Virus record (IMG/VR): IMGVR_UViG_3300050821_002122
Coordinates: 125,690 to 189,689 of that record
Length of the DNA stretch: 64,000 nucleotides
Origin: a virus
Reading direction: 5' to 3' (one strand)
Shown: positions 1 to 23,434 of the stretch, one piece after another
How the letters are laid out: every line of letters begins with the position of its first letter
Position numbering within the stretch: position 1 is the stretch's first letter
The notes under the pieces: model-generated
The model's input: only the letters and a program-made list of their open reading frames with translations
Database searches by the model: none
Told to the model about the DNA's origin: nothing
Made by a program: the position numbers and the translations under genes

Positions 1-2303
1 ATGCGATTGTTAAACGGATTGTTGTCTTTGTGGTCTACTTCAACTGGAAGGTACCCGTAAACCAGCAAAAAGGCTATTCTATGTGCTCTATACAACTCAC
101 CATTTAGGGATAGGTACCACGAATCTTTACGTTTGGAGCCTGCCACACTTCCTATAGGTGTATTGCGGCTGCGAGCTTGTTTCCAGGTGAATTTTCCACT
201 ATCTGGGTCGTAAATAAACCACTCATCCATGAGTTTTTTTAGGTCTTTATCTTCTTGCGGAATACCAGGGATAGCTATATATGCCTGCCGCAATTTCTGA
301 CCAATGCGGAAAATACCAGCCAGCACATCGTCAAGTCCAACGTAAGACCACACACGTACCTCATGCGCGGAATAATCGTAACGCATGAGCAGATAGCCCT
401 TAGGCGTAATGAACATGTGCTTGATGATCTTGGCCAATTTACCACGAGATGGAATCGTTTGCAAGCTTGGGTTCTTCGATGCCAGTCGCCCTGTAGCGAC
501 ATCGAAATACGAATAGTCGGGTCGCAGATGATGGTCTTCAATACTGTCCGCATTAGAGCGGAGTTTTTTCAGCCAACCCTTAGCATAGGTGCCCAGCAGC
601 TTAGAGAGTTTCGAGTAATCACCGTAGGCTGCTACGACCTGATTCTTATCCTTGTTGGCGGCAACAAAGGCTTTGTCGACCGACGATTCACCCTGCTTGG
701 TCGTGTTGACCGGCTCGTAACCCATGACATCGAAGAATAGAGTACGCAAGTGATTACCCTTGCTAAGACTCAATGCCCAATTCAATGCCTTGGCTCTCGC
801 TTTGCCGAACAGTCCTTTGGTTTTCAAACCGCTCTTAGCAAGTATGATATCGTTTGCCTTCACCGCCTCCGGGAACACACGGAATGCATTGCTGAGATTT
901 TTCATCTCAGTACGAAGCGGACTTTCTGTGGAGGTGAGATACTTCAGGTACTTCGCATCTATCAAGGACCCATCTTCGCGCAGGTGACTCAGTTGATGGA
1001 CGGTATCGGACATTTGGTACTGCATATGACGTACGAAATACTCACCATAAGGCTTACCATCGATCAGCTGGTGATCTGCCATCTTGATCTGTTCTTGGCG
1101 CATTGCGAGAATCGATACTACGTCCATGGCGGCATAGCGCAAGAAGTGCTTGTCGTTGGGCTTGATGTTACCGCAAGTGTTGCGATCTTCCTTGCTGAAC
1201 TTCGTAGTCTCGCGGTAGTAGAAGTCGTTGCGATAGCTGCATAGCACAGCAGCCAAGTTACCTGGCTTTGATCCGAAGTTCGACAGCTCGACGATATTTT
1301 CATCGAGGTCATGCTCACCCGCGATGATATCCCATGCGCGGTGTAGAATGATTGGTATCTTGAAATAGCGACGTATGACTCGCAGATCGTAGGGACCGTT
1401 AAAGAACACAAACTCTTTAAGACCCTTCTTTTCTGCCTCACTGAAAAATGCCTTCAGTTCACGGCGTATGTATGCAAGTTCCTCTTTGGTCCACGGTGTC
1501 ATTGGGTGGCTCAATGGAAGCACGTACCCGACGTCGGGATTCAATTCGGTGGCGAACTGCATCGTGTAGATTTTATTGAAGTGGACTGAGAGGTCTTTAG
1601 TCTCCGTATCCAATGCAATAGTCTTCGACTTGCGCAGGCGTACCATCAGCTTGTCGAATAATTCTATGGTGCCGATGTACTTAGGTTTAGGTTCCACGTG
1701 ACCAATGTCATGCGGATGTTTACCCAGCAATAGATTGTTCAAGTGTCTGCACCAGAAGCCCAGCAGATTGGCATACTTACCGTCTTTCTCCAACAATCGG
1801 CTGAAGTCCAACGTCGATACGACTTTCAACTTCAGATCATGCGACTTGAGGTCATGGACCCATCCGCGCTTGTAGGTATGCTTCTCTACCTGCGGCCACA
1901 TAGCGTTCATGGCTTCGTCACCGGAGACCAGTACATGCGTCGGCTGTAGTTTCTCAATAAGCTTGTGCATGTGGGCAGCGAACTCAAGTTCTGCTTGCTT
2001 GCGGGCTTTGCCCTTCAGGTGAAGGTGCCGTTTCTGATTGAAGTTCGCTACTGCGTAAGAAGCCTCGGCTGCACCTTCTTTGTAGGAGCGCACAATACCC
2101 CTGGTATACTTGATCGCGTTCTTGAATGCTGTGTTGACATTGCGGTCTTGAAGCAACCCTCGTGCTTTGAGATCGCGGCCGTCAACCGTTTGTAGGCATA
2201 CCAGTACGCGCTTCTTACTTTGCTTCCAGTCAGAGCAACGAGGCATATGCAGATTGTATGCGTCCTCGTCCTCATATGGAAACTTGAATGTGGTCTCAAG
2301 CAT
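1..2303 (-). CDS. polA: Family A DNA polymerase (N-terminal UDG-like domain, 3'-5' exonuclease, polymerase motif A) continuing in frame into an HNH domain; truncated at window edge
   Basis: Manual translation from ATG 2303 (SD GAGGTG) is open to position 1, so it is missing from the ORF track. ExoI IALDTET, ExoII FNGPYDL, ExoIII YAAMD, TGRLASKNPSLQTIP, motif A YDYSAHEVRV; then YDPDSG...AHRIAF...VDHKDNNPFNNR. Confidence 0.93.
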   Translation of the reverse strand, partial: MLETTFKFPYEDEDAYNLHMPRCSDWKQSKKRVLVCLQTVDGRDLKARGLLQDRNVNTAFKNAIKYTRGIVRSYKEGAAEASYAVANFNQKRHLHLKGKARKQAELEFAAHMHKLIEKLQPTHVLVSGDEAMNAMWPQVEKHTYKRGWVHDLKSHDLKLKVVSTLDFSRLLEKDGKYANLLGFWCRHLNNLLLGKHPHDIGHVEPKPKYIGTIELFDKLMVRLRKSKTIALDTETKDLSVHFNKIYTMQFATELNPDVGYVLPLSHPMTPWTKEELAYIRRELKAFFSEAEKKGLKEFVFFNGPYDLRVIRRYFKIPIILHRAWDIIAGEHDLDENIVELSNFGSKPGNLAAVLCSYRNDFYYRETTKFSKEDRNTCGNIKPNDKHFLRYAAMDVVSILAMRQEQIKMADHQLIDGKPYGEYFVRHMQYQMSDTVHQLSHLREDGSLIDAKYLKYLTSTESPLRTEMKNLSNAFRVFPEAVKANDIILAKSGLKTKGLFGKARAKALNWALSLSKGNHLRTLFFDVMGYEPVNTTKQGESSVDKAFVAANKDKNQVVAAYGDYSKLSKLLGTYAKGWLKKLRSNADSIEDHHLRPDYSYFDVATGRLASKNPSLQTIPSRGKLAKIIKHMFITPKGYLLMRYDYSAHEVRVWSYVGLDDVLAGIFRIGQKLRQAYIAIPGIPQEDKDLKKLMDEWFIYDPDSGKFTWKQARSRNTPIGSVAGSKRKDSWYLSLNGELYRAHRIAFLLVYGYLPVEVDHKDNNPFNNR

Positions 2304-2329
2304 ATGCACCTCTGTGTGATCGATATATC

Positions 2330-11321: not shown

Positions 11322-11798
11322 TTACCTCGGCTTGGTAAGATTTCTTTCACGGATTTTATCGATCAAGGGCTGTACGCGCGTCAACTCACGCTCACCTTCT
11401 TCCATCATATCGAAGCCAGCAGCAGAGGCCAAGGCAGCCAGCGTAGTCATCACGCCACCAATCTCTTGGTTCACTACGCCGATGGGACGGGCAAATACAT
11501 ATGTTACCAACTCATGAGCCTTCTCCTCGGTCATGCCGTTGGCTTGTACCAACTCTAGTGCCTCTTCAATGAACCGCAAATTGCGTTCGTGCGCGCTGGT
11601 AGTCTTTTCGATACCGAAGCATGCGAGTACCCAAAGATGTACACGACCGCTGAATGACTCTTTATAATCACCAACAGTTTTGCCATCAAGCGCTGCATGA
11701 ATTTTGTTGGCGACTTCTTGCAGGCGATTACCAGCCGGTTTGGTTACGTCGTGAAGATCAACGTACCAGTCGTGTAAAGTTTCGTTGTCGATGGTCAT
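11322..11798 (-). CDS. MazG-like (all-alpha NTP pyrophosphohydrolase) protein
   Basis: RFIEEALELVQA...QEIGGVMTTLAALA. Confidence 0.6.
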   Translation of the reverse strand: MTIDNETLHDWYVDLHDVTKPAGNRLQEVANKIHAALDGKTVGDYKESFSGRVHLWVLACFGIEKTTSAHERNLRFIEEALELVQANGMTEEKAHELVTYVFARPIGVVNQEIGGVMTTLAALASAAGFDMMEEGERELTRVQPLIDKIRERNLTKPR

Positions 11799-12309
11799 TT
11801 ACTTCTCCTTAAACCAATAATGCTACCAAATAAGATACCTAAGCTTACTCCAACTGCGTAGATCGGGGAATCACCAAGAATGATGAGCCTCAAATGCGTA
11901 CTTAGGTGATCGAATAACATACCCCAAATAATTCCAAATGGAACCATGAGCGCTACAATCAAAATCAGCCACCTAGCGCGGAGATGTACCACTGCATAGA
12001 ACGGTATAAACGCACCAATACCAGCAGATATCATAGCCAACACAAACGTCCAAAGATAATTCATATTTTATCCTCTTGGTAAGTATTTAAGACCTGACAG
12101 ATGTGGTCAAAGTATTCATCCTGAATTTTCTGCGTTGGTTCAGTGTCGAAGTCGGCTCGGGCTATGCGAACAGTACCACAGCAGAGTACACCATTGCCGT
12201 GATGCCACCTGCCAAATGTCGGGTATTTATTTGTATCAAGCGTGTCGTTGCTCATCACTACATCCATCGTCTGCGCCTCTTCCGATAGTGTCAATTCCTT
12301 TGCGTTCAT
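11795..12309 (-). CDS. Small membrane protein (11795-12064) and hypothetical protein (12061-12309)
   Basis: Three hydrophobic segments in the first; overlapping start/stop codons. Confidence 0.65.
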
Positions 12310-12318
12310 GTGTTTCTC

Positions 12319-12588
12319 CTAGAGAGCGCTAGGCTCGGCGACAATGTACCAGTCGTCACGTATAATATCGTATGCCGTTGGGCAGTAGTCTAAGAAAAGG
12401 TTACCTTCTGCATCGTAAGGTTGCTGTCGGTCTTTAACATAAACCTGACGAAGGGCTCTTTCGTAAGTCTGAGATCGGGTCATACGTATGACGCAGCCTC
12501 GATCAGACAACCAGGTTGGATTGGTCACAACCAAATCGTGTTTGTCAGTTTGGTCAAAGAAGTGCCGCACGATTTCATGAAGTTGCAT
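12319..12588 (-). CDS. Hypothetical protein with DUF2829/Tad2-like C-terminal motif
   Basis: YCPTAYDIIRDDWYIV resembles the W.PS..D.LA.DW.IV signature. Confidence 0.4.
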   Translation of the reverse strand: MQLHEIVRHFFDQTDKHDLVVTNPTWLSDRGCVIRMTRSQTYERALRQVYVKDRQQPYDAEGNLFLDYCPTAYDIIRDDWYIVAEPSAL

Positions 12589-14477
12589 TTTGTTTCCTCT
12601 TGAAGTGTGGTTTGCCGAACAGGATTTCCCAGTGCTGAGGGTTGGTGACGATCATCGGAGATTTGAAGAACCGTTTTGCCAACCGGCGGGTTCGGAATTT
12701 CAAGCTCGCCGGCAATTTCTGTTCCTTGATATCGTCAAGGGTATAGTATTTGCCCACGCGTGCGATCTTGGGTTGCGGAGGTGGTTTGCGATTCAGTCGG
12801 CCTATCGACTGAAAATGGTTGCAAGGTGACCAACTCATGGTAGAGAAATTCAGAGTAGAGGTGTAACTGATAGACGAATCGAAGTTCAGGGGTTCTCCAA
12901 GAACCATGGCCTGCTGCTCCGTCAAATGGAGAGTTGCTACTACCCGGCCATTTTCGTTTACCGTTGCGTTCACTACCTTGCCAACTACTTCACCTTCCGA
13001 TGTTACTGGCTTACCGACGAAGGTAGTAGGATCGATATCAGATGGCAATCCGATGATTACGTTGATATCACTCATGGCTAACCAGATCGATGTTGATTGC
13101 CACATGAGTAAGCATGCTAAATTCTACCACAATGGTAGTGTGCTCCTTACCATTGCGTTCACGAATGATTCTAAAGACTGGTTTGTCGGCCTCTGCTTCC
13201 GGACGTTGGTTAGTAATAAGACTTGCGGCAATGAAGCCTTCAACTTCTGCGTAGTCTAATTCGGTTGGCTCAGTCTCAAGCTTCAGTAGGTGTTTAGTTG
13301 TCGTAGCAAAGAGACGGTCGACTGCATTCGAGATGCCAGTCACGATTTCGATGATACGCTCATCGGTGATTGATTGGTCTATACTGGGTCGAGCGCAGAT
13401 GTAGAGTGGTTTGGCCTCTATTGGTTCGGTAACTGCCTCTGCTCGTGTAAGTGACGTTGTGTGCATACCGCGTCTGAAAGTAAGACCGTTATCATCGCGC
13501 AGCGTGAGGTGCTGAAAGGTAAGAGAATTATTCAGCATGTAGATATTCGCTTGCTTGCACAAATAGGCTGGGATAGCCTCGTAGTCCTGTTGCTCGAATA
13601 ATTCCCTCACACCATTGATTGCATTCATTTCTTCCTCGCTTTACGTGCAGCCTTGGCCTTAGCACGATTCTTGGTTTTGAGTTTGTCGACCGGCACCTTG
13701 TTGCCAGACCGATCCCGAGTACCTGAGTACTTCTTGTATTCCTGTAGTTTCAACTCCGCTACTGAATCATCGACTATCCACTTGATATCAGGTTGATTAT
13801 TGAGAGGTATCATATATCTCCTATTAGGATGTCTTCGATGTGGTCAACGGAAACTTCCCACTGGTGTGGTGATGTCTCACGCCGTAGTTGAAGGCCATGG
13901 TAAAGAGTAGTTCCAAAAAGAACAGGTGGGTACCTACGACCAATCGAGCCAACCTCAAGTTCAGATAGTTCAACAACGCCCAAACTGAAGGTCATACGGC
14001 CAGGGAACTCCGTAGTAGGCTCATGTTCCGGTTTTGGATTACGCAACCGAAACCAGAAACTTTGTAGGCTATGCGTATCTAGCTCCACAGCATCGATGAT
14101 TCGAGACACTGGTATGATGAGCCTCATGTTGTTATCCTATAAAAGAGGGAATTGACATCGACCTTAAGTGCCAGCGATTTGGTGAAAAGACAGTTGCGTA
14201 GAGAACGTTCCCCGTAATCCCGTATCCGCCACACTGAATAATCGTGAATCACACCAACCAGAGTTCTGCCTCGAAATTTGGCAGGGCCGTCTTCCGCGCT
14301 GCAAGGTGTTAGTTGAATCTCGAGGTCTCGCAGGGTTTGTTGCGTATCACCATCTACGGACCTGATCCATTGAACCGCACACTGCATGTTGAAACATACT
14401 ACGTAGACATCGTTGGGTGTCGGATCAGTCTCGCGTAGTTTCTTTACGTTGGCGATGATGTTATCGAGCGGGTTCAT
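12575..14477 (-). CDS. Run of hypothetical proteins (12575-13075, 13068-13628, 13625-13813, 13810-14127, 14124-14477)
   Basis: Consecutive ORFs with overlapping start/stop codons. Confidence 0.65.
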
Positions 14478-15285
14478 CTTTATCTCCTTTGCTGTTAGCT
14501 AGTGCATCTGCTTCTTTTTCGTAATCGATACCAAACTGACTGAAATATTCTTGACGAGTAAGTGGCTTGCCGTCGTCACCCACTGACTTGCAAATGAGAC
14601 CTTGTTCTGCCAATCCTTGCGTGAATTTTGTTTTATCGGCACCTATGGTAGCGGAGGCAGAACGCAACATGTGGTGAACTACTGCGACTGCGCGTTTCTG
14701 ATCTAGCTCAGTGGCGGCCGCTGCCATGCGATCAAGTTCATCAACCCACCACTGACCTTCTTGGAAATTGCTCAAAGGATCGATACCTTTGTCAAGCTGG
14801 TTCATAAGCTTGTCGTTGTGTTCTCGGATGACCTCCATGCGTCCAGCCTGGTGTGCTTCCTTAATCAAGTCTTCGATGTGCCTGCGCAGTGCCTTGAGTG
14901 CAGCTGAGCCTTTAGTACTTCCCAAAGAATGTAACCTAAGATAGTTAATACGGCGCACCAAGTCCTGCTCAAAGAAAGTTGGTGTGCCGGCCACATCAGA
15001 TACAGCGGTAGCAAGATCATATGCCAGTTTCAAGGATGGGCTAGGCTTGCCTACGTTACCTGCTACATGATCTGTACAGGTGTAGATTACAAATCCTTGA
15101 GAGTTATCTACAGTAACCTCACACCAGTCATCACCAGTAAGGTCTGCGGGTATAGTGTGCCCTTTGATATGACCATCATGACTATGAATTACTAGGCTCA
15201 TGCCAACCATACTATAGAATAGGCCTACTACTGAGGCCTCCGCATTGGTGAAGTACGTATATGTTGAGGCGTCGGTGTAGTTCAT
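14461..15285 (-). CDS. Hypothetical multidomain protein (274 aa)
   Basis: Long ORF; N-terminal IPADLTGDDWCEV motif. Confidence 0.7.
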   Translation of the reverse strand: MNYTDASTYTYFTNAEASVVGLFYSMVGMSLVIHSHDGHIKGHTIPADLTGDDWCEVTVDNSQGFVIYTCTDHVAGNVGKPSPSLKLAYDLATAVSDVAGTPTFFEQDLVRRINYLRLHSLGSTKGSAALKALRRHIEDLIKEAHQAGRMEVIREHNDKLMNQLDKGIDPLSNFQEGQWWVDELDRMAAAATELDQKRAVAVVHHMLRSASATIGADKTKFTQGLAEQGLICKSVGDDGKPLTRQEYFSQFGIDYEKEADALANSKGDKDEPAR

Positions 15286-15968
15286 GTTGGTACCTTAAAG
15301 ACCAAGGTGTTTAACTGGCTGTTCACGTAGGCCAACAATTCAGATATTTGGGAGACCTCACAAGGTGTTTGAGGACCGCTAAACATACTTACGAACTTGT
15401 TATCAGCATTCAGTGTTACGGTTATGCTGACACCGGATTGGTCGTCGTAGAAGGCATGTACCATCTTTTGGTAGCCAAGATTCTTGGCGATGATTTTGAT
15501 TGTCATTTTAGTCCTCGAACACTAGGTTTTGAATTTTGTTATTGATTTCTGCCAGCAGTGTTGCCACCACATCCCCAGGTTGTGAACAAGAGATTTGCCG
15601 AATGGTGTAATGCGCGTCATAAAATACGCGTATGTAGCACGCAGGATTATCCTCATAGGAGGCTGTTACCATCCGCGTGGAACCGTTGGAGCCTATTACA
15701 AGGCTTTGGGCAATGAGCTTGATATTCATTCCAAGCACTCCTCAAAGACGATGTTGGGCAGCTCGCGGTGAATCTCATTCATCAAAGCAATGATGGTAGT
15801 CATCGATGCGAACGGAGCATTGGGCATCGAGTACATACCACCCACTTCATTCGCATCATTGAACAGAACAGCAATCCTGTATTCTGGATTGTCCTCAAAG
15901 TAGGCGTAGGCCAACTTCGTGCCTAAGTTAGAGGGCTTGATATGCCGTGCAATAATTCGTATGGTCAT
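15282..15968 (-). CDS. Three tandem paralogous ~75-aa proteins (15282-15506, 15508-15729, 15726-15968)
   Basis: Shared M.I(K/R)(I/L)IA start, (Y/F)(D/E)D(N/Q) core and LVF/IVF end. Confidence 0.75.
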
Positions 15969-16582
15969 TTTCCATACCTCTTCTTTGCTCCTAGCTTACC
16001 AGCAATGGCGGCTTCCTCTTTGGTGTAGCGATGAGCCGTTCCGTCGGCGTGTGCCTTCTTACCGCCCTGGGATGCTATCTCACGTTGACGCTCTGGACTG
16101 ATAGCCGCGAAGCCTCGTGCGTTCAGGTCTTTCACGTAGACATCGCTGACCTGACCCTCATAGGGAGGTGCAGTATGCGAGAACTTGAAGTTCCAATTCT
16201 TGATGTACCACTGTGCCGCCGAATGAGTGTCTAACGCTACATGCGTGAAACCCAGCCTACGGCAATACTGAATTGCTTTCGCAACCAATGCCTTACCAGT
16301 ACCTTTGTTGCGATGTTCGGCGTCCACATGGACAGCATAAAGATGCGGCATCTGCAATAAGGGCAAATTCAAACGAGGCCAGTATGCTGGGTCTGGCTCG
16401 TATTCAATTATAACCGATCCGATTACCACACCTTCTTCCTCTGCGATATACGCCCAGGGAATTGGGTTAGGTATTGGTCCATCTGGCAGAGCTGGAATCT
16501 GTGGTAAGAAGCCGGTGAAGTAATGCTTGGTGGCGTAGGCCAAATGGTCTTTCCTGTTGCGATCAAAGTTCACGATTTTCAT
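15965..16582 (-). CDS. GNAT acetyltransferase fused to a KGG stress-protein motif
   Basis: LYAVHVDAEHRNKGTGKALV (acetyl-CoA motif A); C-terminal RGFAAISPERQREIASQGGK. Confidence 0.8.
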   Translation of the reverse strand: MKIVNFDRNRKDHLAYATKHYFTGFLPQIPALPDGPIPNPIPWAYIAEEEGVVIGSVIIEYEPDPAYWPRLNLPLLQMPHLYAVHVDAEHRNKGTGKALVAKAIQYCRRLGFTHVALDTHSAAQWYIKNWNFKFSHTAPPYEGQVSDVYVKDLNARGFAAISPERQREIASQGGKKAHADGTAHRYTKEEAAIAGKLGAKKRYGK

Positions 16583-17217
16583 TTTGGTGTCCTCAGATAT
16601 TCGTGGAGTAGTGCGCCAGTGCGCTCATCTATGTGCGTCCTGCCGCTCTTTACGAAGCCTGCTTTGGTAAAGACTTTGATGGAGGCCAAGTTTGCGTCAT
16701 CGATGTAAGCACGCCCGGTACGCAAAGCAAAGTGACGTATAACGAAAGCAGTTGCGATGCCTTGACCGCGGAATTCTTTGAGGACAAACAAGGGACCGAT
16801 GCGATTGTGCCCACTGGAATCAGTGTAAGGCCAACACACTCCGACTGGAGTTTTACCCTCATGGTAGATGACGACTAGATTGGCATCTGTTTGATGTTCA
16901 ACTGCACCGTTCAAGAATGCCTCACGCATAGCGTAGTCAATAATACGATTTACCTGAAGGTCGCGAGGGTCTATGATGAAAGACAATAGGTCCCTACTGT
17001 GTACAGACCAAAGTACTTCCTTGGTCTCGTCGATGAGCATCATATGCCCACGATTCACGAGGTACAACTTGCCTTCCACTGGCGGTCGGGTCAACATCGA
17101 AATGTGACCTTTGATATTAACCGACTTTTCTAGCTGATAGGTTTCGTCACCTACCACTACGGTAGAACCTACGGGTATCATATAGGCGGGTATCATTACC
17201 TTCATGTCAATATGCAT
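16579..17217 (-). CDS. GNAT acetyltransferase with an unknown N-terminal domain
   Basis: IGPLFVLKEFRGQGIAT...NLASIKVFTKAGF. Confidence 0.85.
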   Translation of the reverse strand: MHIDMKVMIPAYMIPVGSTVVVGDETYQLEKSVNIKGHISMLTRPPVEGKLYLVNRGHMMLIDETKEVLWSVHSRDLLSFIIDPRDLQVNRIIDYAMREAFLNGAVEHQTDANLVVIYHEGKTPVGVCWPYTDSSGHNRIGPLFVLKEFRGQGIATAFVIRHFALRTGRAYIDDANLASIKVFTKAGFVKSGRTHIDERTGALLHEYLRTPK

Positions 17218-17245
17218 TTCGTTCTCCTGTTGTTCACTTACTGCA

Positions 17246-17255
17246 TATTTACTAG
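17246..17255 (-). promoter_or_regulatory. CTAGTAAATA motif heading the minus-strand block
   Basis: Motif ~30 nt upstream of ATG 17217. Confidence 0.6.
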
Positions 17256-17271
17256 ACCAGGATTCTGATTA

Positions 17272-17383
17272 ACAGAAGAATAAATACAGAAGAATGCTGT
17301 CAGACAATAGACAAAAGAATGCTTAGAAGAATACTATTATGTTTTGAAAGAGTGTTGTCAGACAATGGCATCACAGTAAATAT
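17272..17383. repeat. Iteron/operator-like repeats at the strand switch
   Basis: AGAAGAAT x3 (17274, 17288, 17325); palindromic TGTCAGACA x2 (17298, 17356); CAGTAAATA at 17374. Confidence 0.55.
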
Positions 17384-17459
17384 GTACTGATCCGATCAAG
17401 ACTAAGGTGCGCTACATGTTAGTCCCAACTACTGATGAGCTTAATACATAAGGTAACCT

Positions 17460-18668
17460 ATGAAATACGAGTACACCATGCTGGACGGAATAAAGATGGG
17501 TCTAAATATACAAGACAATGGCATAGCTTTGGACAAGGAGGAATTGGAGGTCTTGAGAAGGATATTCAAGAAAATGAAAGCAGTGTATTACGAACAGAAC
17601 AAGGAGTATGTGATATCAAAGCCAGGCAATACGTCTAGCATACGTATAGGACTACGGCAGCACCATTCAAACGGAGACCATTGGTACCTAAATATAGATG
17701 GTAATCCAATGAATCACTTCAAAGAACAGAACGTATATGGGTACGCAGACGCAGGTCGTCAGATACGTAATACGTTTAAAGCATGCATATTGTGGTTATC
17801 AAAGCGCAGTAAAGTGGTGATAAATGAAAGCCTATATGGAAAGATAGAGAAAGGTGAGATAAACATCCACAGTTTGGAATTCGCTTCTTATACCAAGAAA
17901 TTGGACTGTGATATAGATCAATTGATTAATTCGTGGCAGGCAATGTATCGATTGGCAAACTGGACAGTAGACGGTAAGACCGAAAGCTTGGATAGGATGC
18001 TTGGTATATCTACGCGCATTGATTCAGAGGAGTATGCCAGCTCGTTTGCCTTAGCCACTATAGAGAAATACCAAAGCAGGGTGTATCGCGTGGTGGGTCT
18101 ACGCCTATACAGAAAGGACGTAGAGATAGAAGAGACCAAGACCGAAGTATCTGCTGAGATATTGGCCGACGTACGCCAACGCCTGCGGGTTGACATAGAA
18201 TTCGGGTCACGCTGGCTGCACCGTAAGAAGATAAAGACGGTAAAGGAACTGGAAACATTCGTTGGCATAAATTACGATGGGGATTGGGCCAAGTTCGTTA
18301 GAACCGAGTTGAATGACCTGATTGAAAAAGCATGCTTGCGCTACATGTGGACGTTTCCGAATATATTCACTTTGTCGGAGAAAGCCAAAATACCACCTCA
18401 GTGGTTCGGGGGTGTGGTAGATGCCGAAGTCAGGCAATGGGCGCTTCAGCGCGGGATAAATCCAGATATCAGTTATAAGGCTCATGTGTCAATGGTGTGG
18501 GCACGCTTGAGTGAGCAACCTGGCTACGATAAATTGAAAGCATTGGAGTCGCCGAAAGCCTACGCTAAATCTGCTCTGAGGGCTTACAAGCAAATGGACA
18601 AACTCAAGAATAATCAAGCACTTGCTGTAGCAGGGTTGACCTTTGATAGAAAAGAGGTGGCCCTATGA
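17460..18668 (+). CDS. Putative phage/plasmid replication initiator, gene II/X (Rep_trans-like) family
   Basis: GNTSSIRI, LNIDGNP...QNVYG, GEINIHSLEF, LRLYRKDVE, LRVDIEFGSRWL occur in the family's motif order. Confidence 0.6.
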   Translation: MKYEYTMLDGIKMGLNIQDNGIALDKEELEVLRRIFKKMKAVYYEQNKEYVISKPGNTSSIRIGLRQHHSNGDHWYLNIDGNPMNHFKEQNVYGYADAGRQIRNTFKACILWLSKRSKVVINESLYGKIEKGEINIHSLEFASYTKKLDCDIDQLINSWQAMYRLANWTVDGKTESLDRMLGISTRIDSEEYASSFALATIEKYQSRVYRVVGLRLYRKDVEIEETKTEVSAEILADVRQRLRVDIEFGSRWLHRKKIKTVKELETFVGINYDGDWAKFVRTELNDLIEKACLRYMWTFPNIFTLSEKAKIPPQWFGGVVDAEVRQWALQRGINPDISYKAHVSMVWARLSEQPGYDKLKALESPKAYAKSALRAYKQMDKLKNNQALAVAGLTFDRKEVAL

Positions 18669-19893
18669 AAACCTCAGTAGTAGGCTTGGGCTACTCGCGA
18701 ACACAGGGTTACTTTGAGGCCACCGAAGGGTTGAAGGGAATGCGTCTCAAAATACCAGTGGACGCAAAACGAGGCACATTAGCGTTGGTGTATTTTACAC
18801 GCATCTTCAAAGGGCCGCCAGTAACAACACATATACTAAGTGGAAATGTCCAATGGCGTTGTGAGTTCAAGGGTACAGAATTCTGGTTCGACGTTTATCA
18901 TATGTGGTTAAAGGCCCGTAACGCTGCTGATGTAGAGCAAGCACTTCATGAACTTGAAATCTTACCCAAGATTCAAAAAGTATTCAAACGAGAGATGGTT
19001 GAGTGGCAAACACTTTGCGATTACATGCCGCGTAGTAGGCCTGACATTGCTATAGTTCAGGCCGCATTATTCAACCAGAATCCAGTTGAGGTACTGCGTG
19101 GCGACGCGAAAGTAAATAGAGCAAAGATAGAAAAATTCTTGGACTACATAAGTCCTGTTATAGACAACCTTCTCTAGGAGATAGACATGTGTGAATTAAG
19201 TCCAGAAGTATTGAAGCACAACGCCATCAGCCAGTATATTGCCCTATCGTGGCCGACCGAAGGTATCATGTCATACCCAGATGAATTGGGTAGCTTAGGT
19301 GGTGTTACGACTCGCACGGTATCACCGTTGGGTGTGGAACCCCATCATATTACCGTCGATGGTTACTACGAGCCAGAGTCCATAGATGTTGATGACGCCG
19401 TTGCCACAATGGTAAGATGCTCGCCGTGGCCGATGAAGGTAGTGTATCTGGATGTCATCAAGACCGGTACCCACATTTGGTTTGAACTTCTAGTGGTGGT
19501 AAAATGACATACCATAAATTAATTGATGGGCAACTGGTAGCAGCGGAAGATGGTGATTGGGTACCTCGTCTAACCTACGACGCACTGACGAAACAATTCA
19601 TCGAGTACCTGAGCGCTCAGTTGGAAAAACTCAAGTTAGATCATCTGGGCAACCTAGCCATAAAAGAAGCTGACAGGTTGTGGGCAATAGAGAACGAAAC
19701 ACCCGTGCAACGGGGAATCAGAGAAGGTGCCGAAGCCCAAGCTCGCGCACAAGAAGAGGTAATTGCTAAAATGGAGTTGCCTGAGAATATACGTGTCTTG
19801 CTTGAGAAGCCAGTAAAAGATAGCGCAGAATTCGATAAGCTGGTGCAAGAAACTCTTGCAATGCGTCGTAAATTTACCGTGGTGATGAGGTAA
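18665..19893 (+). CDS. Hypothetical proteins (18665-19177, 19187-19507, 19504-19893)
   Basis: Consecutive ORFs with SDs. Confidence 0.65.
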
Positions 19894-19895
19894 TC

Positions 19896-20276
19896 ATGAA
19901 AGCCATGACAGCAAACCAAAGAGTCAGCAAGCAACGTGCGTTGCGGAAGAGATTGGGGTGGTATGAAGTGCGTGTGTGGGTACCTACCAAAGAGGATGCA
20001 ACGAGCATCCAAGCACTAGCCCAGAAGATGCGGGAAGTCAGTGACGAACATAAGGGCATCGATCTACATGAAGCTTGCTTGGAGGCATGCGAAAGCCACC
20101 TACAAGGTGTGGTAATAAAGTTGGGGTCTTACCAACTGAAGGAGGTAATCAAGTACTGGCGATCCTATTACACTGCTGGTGGTCGTTTGCTTTGGGTGGA
20201 TGGCCTGAATCATCACCTGACCTCTGTCGAACGTGCAATACTTCTTGGAGTTGACAATGAAAATCAAACTAGCTGA
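19896..20276 (+). CDS. Protein with DUF3018 (MazE-like antitoxin) N-terminal motif
   Basis: QRVSKQRALRKRLGWYEVRVWVP. Confidence 0.5.
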   Translation: MKAMTANQRVSKQRALRKRLGWYEVRVWVPTKEDATSIQALAQKMREVSDEHKGIDLHEACLEACESHLQGVVIKLGSYQLKEVIKYWRSYYTAGGRLLWVDGLNHHLTSVERAILLGVDNENQTS

Positions 20277-20443
20277 CGACCACGGCTTCGGTATCCTTAC
20301 TCCAGAGATGAGTGCAATTATTGATAGAGAGGTACAAACCTTAACTGAGTTCTTATTCTGGACGCATGACTTCCCAGAACCGGTAGTCATTCGAGCCTTC
20401 GATACCGACACGATCTATATCGATCATCCATGGGCCTACTAAC

Positions 20444-21040
20444 ATGAAAACCAGACCAACTAATGACCCCACTGAGGTGGAGGTCGAAATCATTGCTGGT
20501 GGGTGGGTCAGCTACAAGCGTGGCCTGCGGGCGATCATCGAGGAGACCAAACGACGCCACCATATTACATGCAGAGGTTATGGTACACCAATACGCCATC
20601 TGATTGGTCTACGTCACGAGACTATCACCCGCAGTGTACCTGGTACTCCACTGGTTGCAACTCAGTTGTTGGTAATCGCGTTAGCAGGTTCGCGAATCTC
20701 AATCCGCGAAATGTACGAGCTGAACTTGGAAGACCCAGAGATCAGAGAGGTCACCAACGATCTCAGCCTACAGATACAAGGCAAAGCAGTACATGTGATC
20801 CGCCACATGGAAGTAGAGGCTGTATTCGATCTGGCTACACCAGCCGACAACTTTATCGAAGTATGTGCCTATGCCTCCAAGCAGCGTCGGACACAAGCGA
20901 TGGGAGACCTTGGTATAACTCATCCTGTTTTGGGTCACGCTCGCGGCAAACCTCAGGTACCAGCGTCGTGGATTATCAAGGCACATCTTTATACCGGAAT
21001 ACCAATCGCTCAACTTACGGAGATGGGAACATGCAAATAG
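20444..21040 (+). CDS. Tandem HTH-like regulator, paralog 1
   Basis: Two internal repeats, the second ending WIIKAHLYTGIPIAQL. Confidence 0.6.
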   Translation: MKTRPTNDPTEVEVEIIAGGWVSYKRGLRAIIEETKRRHHITCRGYGTPIRHLIGLRHETITRSVPGTPLVATQLLVIALAGSRISIREMYELNLEDPEIREVTNDLSLQIQGKAVHVIRHMEVEAVFDLATPADNFIEVCAYASKQRRTQAMGDLGITHPVLGHARGKPQVPASWIIKAHLYTGIPIAQLTEMGTCK

Positions 21041-21618
21041 AGAACATCGATGGCAGGCTGATTAAAGTTGTACTAGATGACAAAACCATGGTGGTTCAAC
21101 GTGGTGTGTTGGCAATAATTGAGGTAGTGAAGCATCAAAGAAAAATCAAACGCAGTGGTTACTGCAAAGCTGTAAAACCTTTAGTCGGCATGACATCGGA
21201 GGTAGTGAGTCGGTGCCGGACCCAGAACAAGAATATGGCTGCATCCCAAATCCTGAAGGTACACCGCTTGAGTGGTCTACCGATTGCCGACATCTACGCG
21301 CTGGACCTACAAGAGTGCAACCCAATAGCACTACAAGAAGATGTTGTCGAACGCGTACCTGATGCAGTATGCGGTTACTGGCTAACCGTAAATGATGGTC
21401 CCGCTAACTATCACCGTGACCATGTTGACGCCTTCTTAGGCGCGCTGACCACAGTATGTCAAGAACCGAAGCACATAATAATGGGCGAATTGGACCTCTC
21501 GATTTACCGAGTGAGTCAACAGCGTCGGTTGTCCAACATACCCGCACCGTGGATTTTGAAAGCCCACCTGTACACAGGCCTGAAACTAAGCGAGTTATCG
21601 AAATTGGAGGCATTATGA
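21031..21618 (+). CDS. Tandem HTH-like regulator, paralog 2
   Basis: ATG 21031 after a GGAG/GGGA SD; repeats QILKVHRLSGLPI and WILKAHLYTGLKL. Confidence 0.6.
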   Translation: MQIENIDGRLIKVVLDDKTMVVQRGVLAIIEVVKHQRKIKRSGYCKAVKPLVGMTSEVVSRCRTQNKNMAASQILKVHRLSGLPIADIYALDLQECNPIALQEDVVERVPDAVCGYWLTVNDGPANYHRDHVDAFLGALTTVCQEPKHIIMGELDLSIYRVSQQRRLSNIPAPWILKAHLYTGLKLSELSKLEAL

Positions 21619-22426
21619 GCGACGAGAAACTGAGGCAGCAAATTACCAATATGGCCAACGATGAGTATATCTCGGATGCCAAGTTTTTGTCTGTCGTTGA
21701 GGACCTGATCGTAGATCGCCGCACTGAGTTGAACCGAGTTGCGCGAGTGGAGGCGGCCACTACTCGGGTAATTGAGGCTTTCAAGGCAGCTGGTATACCA
21801 GTCAACTCTGAACCACTGTCCCAAGATGAACGAGCAGCTGCCTTGAAGGTAGTGTATGACACAGTACGCGGTGTAACCTACGCATCGCTTGGCAGTGTTC
21901 GTAATGAAGTCTACACTGTTGGCATGGCGATCGCTTTGATTCAGGAGTTGGCCAAATGAATTTAGCCTACATACTAGGTGCAGTCAGTTACGGGCGGACT
22001 GACATTATGCCTCATCTTACCTTCGTGCGGTTGGCGCCAGGTCGCGTGCCACAAACGCACATCAACGATGATATGAGAATACCAGAACTCGATTTAGTGG
22101 TGCGTTTGCATAGCAACGTTACCGACGACGAAGCAATCGGTTACCTGTTGCAGGCAGAAATGGAATTCTACAAGCAGTTATTTGAACCAACCGCAGAACC
22201 AGACGTCTACAACATTCACCATGGTACGGTTCACTATCGGGAGAATTTCTGGACCTACGAAAAAGATGAACGCCCGTCGGCGCTGCGGCCCCATATGTTT
22301 GTGGCACAAGTGAGTTACCACATGATGCAGCGCCTACCAGGTGTAGTAAATAACATTCAGATAAAGACCATGATCTCGAAGACCGAGTTCCGGACCTACA
22401 TTAACGGATTACAGAAGGGCTTGTGA
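21615..22426 (+). CDS. Hypothetical proteins (21615-21959, 21956-22426)
   Basis: ORFs with ATGA overlaps. Confidence 0.65.
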
Positions 22427-23434
22427 ATGTCTAAGCTTATTGCTTTGGGGGACCTCCACCTCACAGATCAGCACGGTAGCGGTGGTCTCGCTAAGTATGT
22501 GGAGAAGCCCGACGAATACGTCATGAGCGAGGTTTCAAGGGTTGTGAAATGGGGATTGAAGCATGATGTTCTCGATTACGTTTTTGAGGGCGATATCTGC
22601 GAGAACCCGCGCATGAGTTATGAGGCACAGTTGGCATTCGCTCGATGCCTGCGTCGCTATCCTGACCTTCAGTTCTGGTTGATCCCAGGTAACCACGATA
22701 AGGTTGGTCGTGACTCAGCGGAAGGTCACTCGCTGGAAATCATCAAAGAAATGCGTATCAAGAATTTGAAAATCTGTTTGACCGATGAGGTGGTTCAAAT
22801 CGGTCGGACGAAGGTTAAGATGTGCCCGTGGCCTTCTACTGCATTTGACCCGAAGATGTTGAACATCGGCCACGTTGAGGTGCGTGGCTCAAAGACCGAC
22901 AGTGGTCGTAAGATGGAAGGTGAGGAATTATCGAAGTCGCAGGCAGTGGTCCTGATGGGACACTTGCACACACCACACAAAGTCCGCAACACTCACTACA
23001 CCGGCACTCTGTACCAAACGAATTTCGGTGAACCTCTACCAAAAGGCTTTCACTATGTTGAATGGACCAGTAGGGATGACCACGAGATTACCCATGTGCC
23101 TTTCGATCCCAAGTACAAGTTGCATAACTGTGTCATCGAATCTGAGGATGACATAAAGGCTCTGCCTCGTAGCGAGACTGACCTCATAAAGTTGGTCGTC
23201 AAAGATGGGGCCGACGTAGTGGTCCCACAGTGGTCGAACATTGTTGTAACCAAAGTTTTCAAAACAAAGAATGATCTGGTATCTATTCTCACCGAAGACC
23301 TTTTGAACGGACATGAGTTGGTCATCCGATCCTCTGACTACTTCAACAAGTGGTTAGGAGCCCAAACGATACCGCAAGCTTTAAAGGTAAGGGCGACGCG
23401 TCTTCGCAAACAAATATTAGGTGGTGGAAAATGA
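22427..23434 (+). CDS. SbcD/Mre11/gp47-like metallophosphoesterase nuclease
   Basis: GDLH, GDI, GNHD, GH, GHLH motifs. Confidence 0.88.
   Translation: MSKLIALGDLHLTDQHGSGGLAKYVEKPDEYVMSEVSRVVKWGLKHDVLDYVFEGDICENPRMSYEAQLAFARCLRRYPDLQFWLIPGNHDKVGRDSAEGHSLEIIKEMRIKNLKICLTDEVVQIGRTKVKMCPWPSTAFDPKMLNIGHVEVRGSKTDSGRKMEGEELSKSQAVVLMGHLHTPHKVRNTHYTGTLYQTNFGEPLPKGFHYVEWTSRDDHEITHVPFDPKYKLHNCVIESEDDIKALPRSETDLIKLVVKDGADVVVPQWSNIVVTKVFKTKNDLVSILTEDLLNGHELVIRSSDYFNKWLGAQTIPQALKVRATRLRKQILGGGK

Follow-up and report, generated by a model that had tools for sequence, protein, structure and literature searches.

The locus described here raises the question of whether a jumbo phage, with a double-stranded DNA (dsDNA) genome, could begin its replication at a nick made by an initiator of the kind that filamentous phages encode in gene II. 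It lies in the final 64 kb (hereafter the window, the whole stretch of 64,000 nucleotides that was analysed) of a viral contig of 189,689 bp, IMG/VR record IMGVR_UViG_3300050821_002122, which comes from a soil phage and has a CheckV completeness of approximately 80%. The Rep gene (17460..18668, plus strand; positions are those of the window unless stated otherwise) starts with ATG, codes for 402 amino acids and opens a plus-strand block that continues to the end of the contig; a minus-strand block of approximately 70 kb ends at 17217, and the 242 bp in between (17218..17459) form a divergent intergenic region, the candidate origin. A preliminary description of this DNA had noticed a 402-residue open reading frame (ORF) at a strand switch, preceded by a divergent region of some 240 bp, and had suggested that it codes for a rolling-circle-type initiator, either domesticated for replication or selfish. 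The ORF and the divergent region were both confirmed, and the switch proved to be the main one of the contig (minus block 73650–142906, plus block from 143149 to the end, in contig coordinates). We propose that Rep and its upstream region would form an origin-plus-initiator module of the jumbo phages related to Ralstonia phage RSL1, a function that we consider, on balance, probable.

As had been suspected from the order of its motifs, the protein belongs by its sequence to the gene II protein (G2P/Phage_CRI) family, in which it is a divergent member. It matches the Pfam profile Phage_CRI (PF05144, the N-terminal part of G2P) with 23.5 bits against a gathering cut-off of 21.7 (E = 5.2e-5, profile positions 41–230 of 232), and the same profile is matched by 36 of 59 relatives, the best with an E value of 2.9e-12. 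An exhaustive HMMER search gave 80 cluster representatives, of which 15 had E values below 1e-30, and all have 350–470 residues save a few fragments. The closest relatives, found on contigs of approximately 95 kb, are 46% identical, and no relative with more than 50% protein identity was found. The G2P_X_C profile (PF05155) gave no match at E values up to 1 and no in-frame gene X is evident; since this domain is carried by 49% of one G2P Atlas cluster, it is common in the family rather than defining. Likewise, the Rep_trans profile (PF02486) was not matched at E values up to 1, a profile search of the PDB sequences returned chance matches only and no Rep_trans chain, and no Pfam family of the HUH type was matched.

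Conservation of the individual residues was counted in an alignment of 59 sequences, using the definitions of the Rep_trans motifs given by Carr (2016) and Wawrzyniak (2017). N82, A142, Y217, K219, R241 and R243 are invariant. The residue D9, corresponding to motif N', is present in all 56 rows that have a residue at this position. Motif III contains Y217-x-K219, the LYRK of this protein, with both residues conserved in 59 of 59 sequences, followed by E222, which is a glutamate in 43 rows and a glutamine in 12; the same alternation of glutamate and glutamine is seen between RepDE and RepSTK1. Motif IV, R241-x-R243-x-D245, has both arginines in 59 of 59 sequences, and its last position is aspartate in 49 and glutamate in 10. 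The DNA-linking tyrosine of the M13 gene II protein (gpII) is Tyr-197 (PMC5405960), and in an hmmsearch with the family profile the M13 stretch LVAY(197)LKHVE was aligned with the Y-D-K-x-x-E of the family, which places Tyr-197 opposite Y217, albeit with a weak alignment score. The Y-x-K pair singled out in the preliminary description as the catalytic candidate is therefore the one that these comparisons recover. Taken together, the protein looks like a divergent gene-II-type nickase that is enzymatically intact.

A similar picture emerges from the predicted structure. The AlphaFold (AF2) model built on the 59-sequence alignment has a predicted local distance difference test score (pLDDT) of 92.8 and a predicted template modelling score (pTM) of 0.90; residues 1 to approximately 250 form a catalytic beta-saddle and residues from approximately 250 to 402 a helical domain. 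In the model the motif residues are placed on strands and on the helix that follows, as in Rep_trans proteins, and Y217 is at the end of a beta-strand, not on a helix packed against a sheet as the catalytic tyrosine of HUH endonucleases would be. When the model was compared with the PDB using Foldseek, the only matches with E values below 1e-3 were the Rep_trans initiators 4cij, 4cwc and 4cwe (probability 0.97–1.00), with low template modelling scores (0.23–0.44) and 8–12% identity; a match to this fold was what the preliminary description had made its proposal depend on. Structural alignment to the solved Rep_trans proteins with VIA-align gave a Z score of 8.2 over 216–228 residues, level with that obtained for TBP (8.6–8.9), a protein that has the same sheet topology as the Rep_trans catalytic domain (Carr et al.). 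The structural neighbours in BFVD and in the Atlas are G2P proteins of the Inoviridae, and the TrwC relaxase structures were matched weakly (Foldseek probability 0.10–0.15). From these comparisons, the catalytic domain is predicted to adopt the crescent-shaped, pseudo-symmetric beta-sheet fold of Rep_trans. The protein is also predicted to form a homodimer, with an ipSAE of 0.70 against 0.01 for the best control, at least 92% of the contacts common between runs and a pLDDT of at least 86; among solved structures, 20 of 30 homodimers and 1 of 23 single chains attain the ipSAE mark that was applied. Because the solved Rep_trans proteins are dimers, this result may reflect likeness to them.

At 36.0%, the GC content of the region upstream of the gene is lower than that of any other of the contig's 35 non-coding gaps measuring 150 nt or more; the genome has 49.8%, and the repeat core of the region 31.7%. 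A cluster of direct repeats occupies 17274..17335 on the plus strand, with three copies of AGAAGAAT, the number given in the preliminary description, at 17274, 17288 and 17325, and AAAAGAATGCT at 17313, a fourth copy of what is really a repeat unit of approximately 11 nt, A(G/A)AAGAAT(G/A)CT. The three copies of AGAAGAAT are all those present in the window, and three of the ten present on both strands of the contig. The two occurrences of TGTCAGACA, at 17298 and 17356, had been described as palindromes; both are there, but they are short and imperfect rather than long, with arms of 4–5 bp around a central A. Extended to the 11-mer TGTCAGACAAT (17298..17308 and 17356..17366, plus strand) they have no further copy anywhere in the 189,689 bp, and the second, read with its flank, gives the 11-bp palindrome TTGTC-A-GACAA. 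When judged against 400 Markov-1 simulations of the region with the same dinucleotide make-up, the longest exact repeat (11 nt) was reached in 6, an 8-mer present three times in 3, and a repeat pair matching at 17 of 19 positions in none. The repeats are thus real, beyond what chance would give, and specific to this locus. A direct-repeat cluster in an AT-rich non-coding gap that adjoins an initiator gene is, in sequence layout alone, the arrangement of an iteron-type origin, and the same layout is found in the related contigs G001, G003, G004 and G005.

The repeats are flanked by an inverted pair of longer motifs, CATATTTACT at 17244..17253 (the leftward, minus-strand copy, with the 7-mer at 17247–17253, approximately 30 nt before the leftward gene) and AGTAAATATG at 17375..17384 (the rightward, plus-strand copy, 7-mer at 17377–17383, approximately 80 nt before the start codon of Rep). 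Their common 7-mer, GTAAATA/TATTTAC, is present in all six Rep-upstream regions. It was considered as a Rep-specific signal and rejected, given that it occurs throughout the genomes of this phage, G001 and G003–G005 and also in that of RSL1, which has no Rep, and that its orientation tracks the direction of the genes block by block; it is over-represented two to three times in this phage (G000), in G004 and in RSL1, but not in G001. The main switch of RSL1 is likewise bracketed by a divergent pair of these motifs (204451, minus, and 204933, plus). We take GTAAATA to be a probable promoter element, shared by the RSL1-like clade as a whole, and since it is genome-wide and gene-oriented, the flanking pair is most simply explained as two divergent promoters. 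Judged by sequence comparison, the elements linked to Rep are the repeats that lie between the two motifs. Another candidate signal was TAATAGT, found at 17333–17339 on the minus strand, opposite the third copy of AGAAGAAT and within its span; it is identical to the core of the site at which the M13 plus strand is nicked, TTCTTT^AATAGTGG. As a shared nick-site core it was dropped, with a chance expectation of approximately 0.03, an overlap with a -10-like box and no convincing sharing with the other loci, and it is kept as a lead only.

Relatives of the gene were sought by pattern scans of IMG/VR. Single-copy Rep relatives, approximately 25–28% identical, were found on five further contigs of uncultured jumbo phages (the Rep-bearing contigs other than this one are labelled among G001–G006), whose sizes or CheckV estimates point to genomes of 215–250 kb; the G004 contig is complete and has terminal repeats. 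The first gene to the right of the main divergent switch is again Rep in G003, G004 and G005, where the minima of the cumulative GC-skew and of the cumulative AT-skew both fall inside the gap upstream of Rep. In the phage described here the cumulative AT-skew, taken over the whole contig, has its minimum at contig position 142939, that is at 17250 of the window and within the divergent region. In G001, G003, G004 and G005 each upstream gap has its own repeats, found nowhere else in genomes of 134–249 kb. Because this layout recurs in independent assemblies, as well as at the syntenic place in RSL1, it can be excluded that the switch is an assembly junction, a concern raised at the outset. No match to this protein or to three of its relatives was obtained with megablast and tblastn in 50,697 deposited phage records, and scans of JGI metagenome contigs and GTDB genome contigs with the family patterns gave no confirmed relative.

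In the contig, 88 ORFs are collinear with RSL1, with 30–60% identity; the stretch from 11798 to 22427 has no detectable similarity to this phage, and the homologue of RSL1 ORF296, a gene for an SbcD/Mre11-like nuclease (22427..23434, plus strand), provides the synteny anchor. In this phage, G003 and G004 alike, the switch is followed by Rep, then by some kb of small ORFs and then by the SbcD-like gene, even though their Rep proteins are only approximately 25% identical; in RSL1 nothing lies between the switch and the SbcD-like gene. In G004 a second metallophosphatase gene follows directly after Rep (L039:7308-8264), whose product is 29% identical to the SbcD-like protein, and the closer SbcD orthologue is located 6.5 kb further. 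In G001 the Rep leader of 300 bp is rich in repeats and hairpins and is unique in that genome. This leader (L002:9650-9955, corresponding to G001 68450-68754) contains two 30-nt elements, each a perfect hairpin with an 11-bp stem and a 6-nt loop (TTTCACCTTAT/ATAAGGTGAAA), a third partial copy of the element and three other repeat pairs, all of them unique in the 249-kb genome.

In the relatives that have no Rep, a different set of genes is found at the same place. The RSL1 switch lies between ORF295, a superfamily 2 (SF2) helicase of phrog_2467, and ORF296, with ORF291, a Dda-like helicase, nearby. The phrog_2467 helicase adjoins the SbcD-like gene or the switch in RSL1, BcepSaruman and BCSR5, all without Rep, and is absent from the five Rep-bearing genomes tested (5/5). 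The Dda-like helicase is absent, by its Pfam model, from four of four Rep-bearing genomes, and tblastn with RSL1 ORF291 detected none in five of five. A DnaB-like helicase, on the other hand, is encoded in all five genomes tested, that is, four with Rep and RSL1. Rep and the helicase module therefore show a complementary distribution at the same genomic place. The divergent gap of RSL1 (L034:18434-18970, RSL1 204434-204969) has 537 bp, is GC-rich and contains inverted repeats of its own (the arms of a hairpin, GGTTTATGTACC), and the helicase module could use this gap as its origin.

A mechanism can be drawn from these elements. Rep, as a probable dimer, would bind the TGTCAGACAAT and AGAAGAAT repeats, and Y217, together with a metal held by acidic residues (D9, D245 and perhaps E140), would cut one strand in or near 17260–17400, leaving Rep linked to the 5' end of the cut strand. 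The free 3'-OH would then be extended by the family A polymerase of the phage, behind its DnaB-like helicase or one of the host, and sigma-type (rolling-circle) synthesis would produce concatemers for headful packaging; alternatively, the nick may simply open the first fork. RSL1-type relatives without Rep would start replication in another way, using the helicase pair at the same place. Extended to the whole RSL1-related lineage of jumbo phages (dsDNA, more than 200 kb), the proposal is that replication would be started by a gene II/Rep_trans nick at an iteron origin on the main transcriptional divide, this being a modular slot filled either by the nickase or by the helicase pair of RSL1, BCSR5 and BcepSaruman, so that initiation would have been swapped at a conserved origin. 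In this wider form we regard the idea as tentative and rather short of probable.

Several observations weigh against a role of Rep and its repeats as initiator and origin. No clear equivalent of motif I (RxD) is seen; E140, the most likely residue, is a glutamate in only 39 of 59 rows, and lies on the same strand as A142 and Y144, which are invariant or nearly so. The iteron region, taken as single-stranded DNA (ssDNA), shows no notable hairpin (fold z of -0.8 and -1.3). The repeats stand beside the promoter of the gene and could be autoregulatory operators rather than an origin. The skew minima coincide with the transcription switch and for this reason are not independent evidence of an origin, and the transcription of both arms away from the site fits bidirectional replication better than one-way rolling circle. 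Approximately 8 kb separate the Rep gene from the switch in G001, and both there and in G002 the gene lies within a co-directional block. A six-frame profile search found no Rep relative in RSL1, BcepSaruman and BCSR5, the three cultured relatives. Furthermore, the Rep-bearing genomes are related to each other, which leaves few independent observations behind the recurrent layout, and the tree of topoisomerase II A, which is a star apart from G001, does not discriminate between gain and loss of Rep.

The composition of the gene had been described as a distinct, A-rich codon usage. Its GC content of 44.3% is the tenth lowest of 206 genes and its A content of 32.8% the seventh highest, and to this mild extent the description holds; the GC content at third codon positions (GC3), however, is ordinary (z of -0.5). 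A recent foreign origin of the gene was dropped as an explanation, its composition being just mildly unusual.

The second possibility offered in the preliminary description was a selfish or mobile accessory gene, that is, a Rep-type nickase with its own site that copies or homes itself within a hypervariable region and takes no part in phage replication. In favour of such a gene are the patchy distribution, Rep being absent from the three cultured relatives and, by tblastn, from all deposited records, its location in a stretch without detectable similarity to RSL1 and at a different genomic place in G001, and its somewhat A-rich composition; other selfish nucleases are present in the genome. 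Nevertheless, the gene is always single-copy, its GC3 is unremarkable, and it is free-standing in an intergenic context, where it interrupts no conserved gene in the way of a homing-type insertion. Genomes with very divergent Reps retain it in one place, by the switch and ahead of the SbcD-like gene, and its distribution is complementary to that of a helicase module at the same site. The conservation of position over such deep divergence favours a replication role, at least as far as comparative evidence goes; this kept position, together with the single copy, the intact catalytic residues and the complementarity with the helicases, is the reason why a core role is preferred over a homing-type parasite, which we consider quite unlikely. 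That the gene was left behind by a filamentous phage or satellite once integrated here, or that the contig is a chimera in which a small rolling-circle replicon was joined to a jumbo contig during assembly, seems very improbable. The protein family is otherwise typical of inoviruses and the contig is a metagenome assembly, but no inovirus gene was found among the neighbouring ORFs scanned against Pfam and PHROG, both flanks are collinear with RSL1, the pair of divergent promoter motifs is homologous to that of RSL1, and the same layout is present in other, independent assemblies, among them one that is complete and has terminal repeats.

A different alternative accepts that Rep is an active nickase or DNA-binding protein and assigns it a role other than initiation: it could nick phage or host DNA for recombination-dependent replication or for packaging, act against competitors such as inoviruses and plasmids, or regulate the two divergent promoters. 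The last of these would suit the location of the repeats between two promoter-like GTAAATA motifs, with the second TGTCAGACAAT abutting the rightward motif, a typical operator position; a purely regulatory role is nonetheless disfavoured by the full conservation of the catalytic tyrosine, lysine, arginine and acidic residues. A function in recombination would agree with the presence of a recombination nuclease gene (SbcD-like) downstream in the same block, and initiators of rolling-circle replication are known to be multifunctional (reviewed by Wawrzyniak 2017). Against this, no precedent for such roles was found for the G2P family in the literature searched, and the standard layout of origins in this protein family is an AT-rich site of the iteron type adjoining the gene, as seen here. 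We therefore regard a role outside initiation as unlikely, and retain the origin-plus-initiator module as the preferred reading of the locus.

Among the known systems closest to Rep is gpII (G2P) of the Ff phages M13, f1 and fd. Both belong to Phage_CRI and are of similar size (402 residues here and 410 in gpII), both have a Y-x-K with the DNA-linking tyrosine (a candidate in the present case) and a G-x-N-V-(F/Y)-G motif, and in both the gene adjoins a non-coding region with repeated sites, which are binding sites for gpII and putative ones here. The differences are nonetheless considerable: gpII acts in a 6-kb ssDNA phage, whereas the phage described here is a jumbo phage of approximately 200–250 kb, with linear-packaged dsDNA, a polymerase, a DnaB-like helicase and a topoisomerase of its own, in which no single-strand phase is expected; the sequence similarity is marginal (E 5e-5), and G2P_X_C and an evident gene X are missing. 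With the Rep_trans proteins of the pT181-family plasmids and pSTK1 (RepC, RepD, RepDE and RepSTK1; 4CWC, 4CWE, 4CIJ) it shares the crescent, TBP-like catalytic beta-sheet, the motifs N' (D), III (YxKxxE/Q) and IV (RxE/D), with the tyrosine on a strand and the glutamate or glutamine on the next helix, and the dimeric state, predicted in this case. It differs from them in having no PF02486 match, 8–12% identity in structural alignments, no evident motif I (RxD), no strong origin hairpin and a larger, helical C-terminal domain.

In the tailed dsDNA phages P2 and 186, rolling-circle replication is initiated by protein A, a tyrosine nuclease of the HUH type that makes a site-specific nick; P2 is temperate, and its 33-kb genome has the origin inside the A gene. 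The likeness to Rep is one of concept, that is, nick-started replication in a tailed dsDNA phage, and the two proteins belong to different superfamilies, Rep having no HUH match in Pfam and weak matches to the relaxase structures (probability 0.10–0.15). The helicase module of RSL1 (ORF295, phrog_2467, and ORF291, Dda-like; also present in BCSR5 and BcepSaruman) occupies the same place by the main switch and the SbcD-like gene, but consists of unrelated proteins, helicases instead of nickases, with a putative function.

Other genes close to the switch complete the description of the locus. The divergent region is bordered on the left by the first gene of the leftward block, coding for a GNAT acetyltransferase (16579..17217, minus strand); this is one of two neighbouring GNAT genes in 15965–17217 (minus strand), of which the distal one has a C-terminal KGG stress-protein repeat. 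Next to them, at 15282–15968 (minus strand), there are three small ORFs in tandem, of 74, 76 and 80 residues, with similar starts (M-T-I-K/R-I-I-A...) and ends (...N-L/I-V-F-E), which look like a triplicated small gene. On the right, the Rep stop codon overlaps the start (ATGA) of an ORF of 170 residues (18665..19177, plus strand), which has no family match, is not conserved in G001 and is possibly co-translated with Rep. Family scans with Pfam and PHROG assigned no known function to the ORFs in 18665–22426. Two of these, adjacent ORFs of approximately 195 residues located between the Rep and SbcD-like genes (20444–21040 and 21040–21618, plus strand), are paralogous (24% identity, E 2e-15), share the C-terminal motif W-I-(I/L)-K-A-H-L-Y-T-G and have no family match. 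At the edge of the window, the ORF of the family A DNA polymerase (3–2309, minus strand) carries an HNH_3 endonuclease domain.

Neither the protein family nor the principle of rolling-circle replication is new. The deposited phage genomes and the literature searched yielded no conserved clade of gene-II-type initiators placed at the main divide of jumbo dsDNA phages, and the terms "rolling circle", "origin of replication" and "replication initiat" are all absent from a 2026 review on the biology of jumbo phages. Little is known of how replication starts in jumbo phages beyond the T4 and phiKZ models, and for the RSL1-related lineage the present locus offers a concrete candidate, a site of 242 bp and a protein of 402 residues with a named catalytic tyrosine. 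If the proposal holds, initiators of the gene II/Rep_trans type, familiar from small ssDNA phages, plasmids and conjugative elements, would extend to dsDNA genomes approximately 30 times larger. A defined origin with its initiator would also be useful for replicons built from such phages. Finally, the complementarity with the helicase module suggests that initiators may be swapped in jumbo phages as well, as they are in the lambdoid phages.

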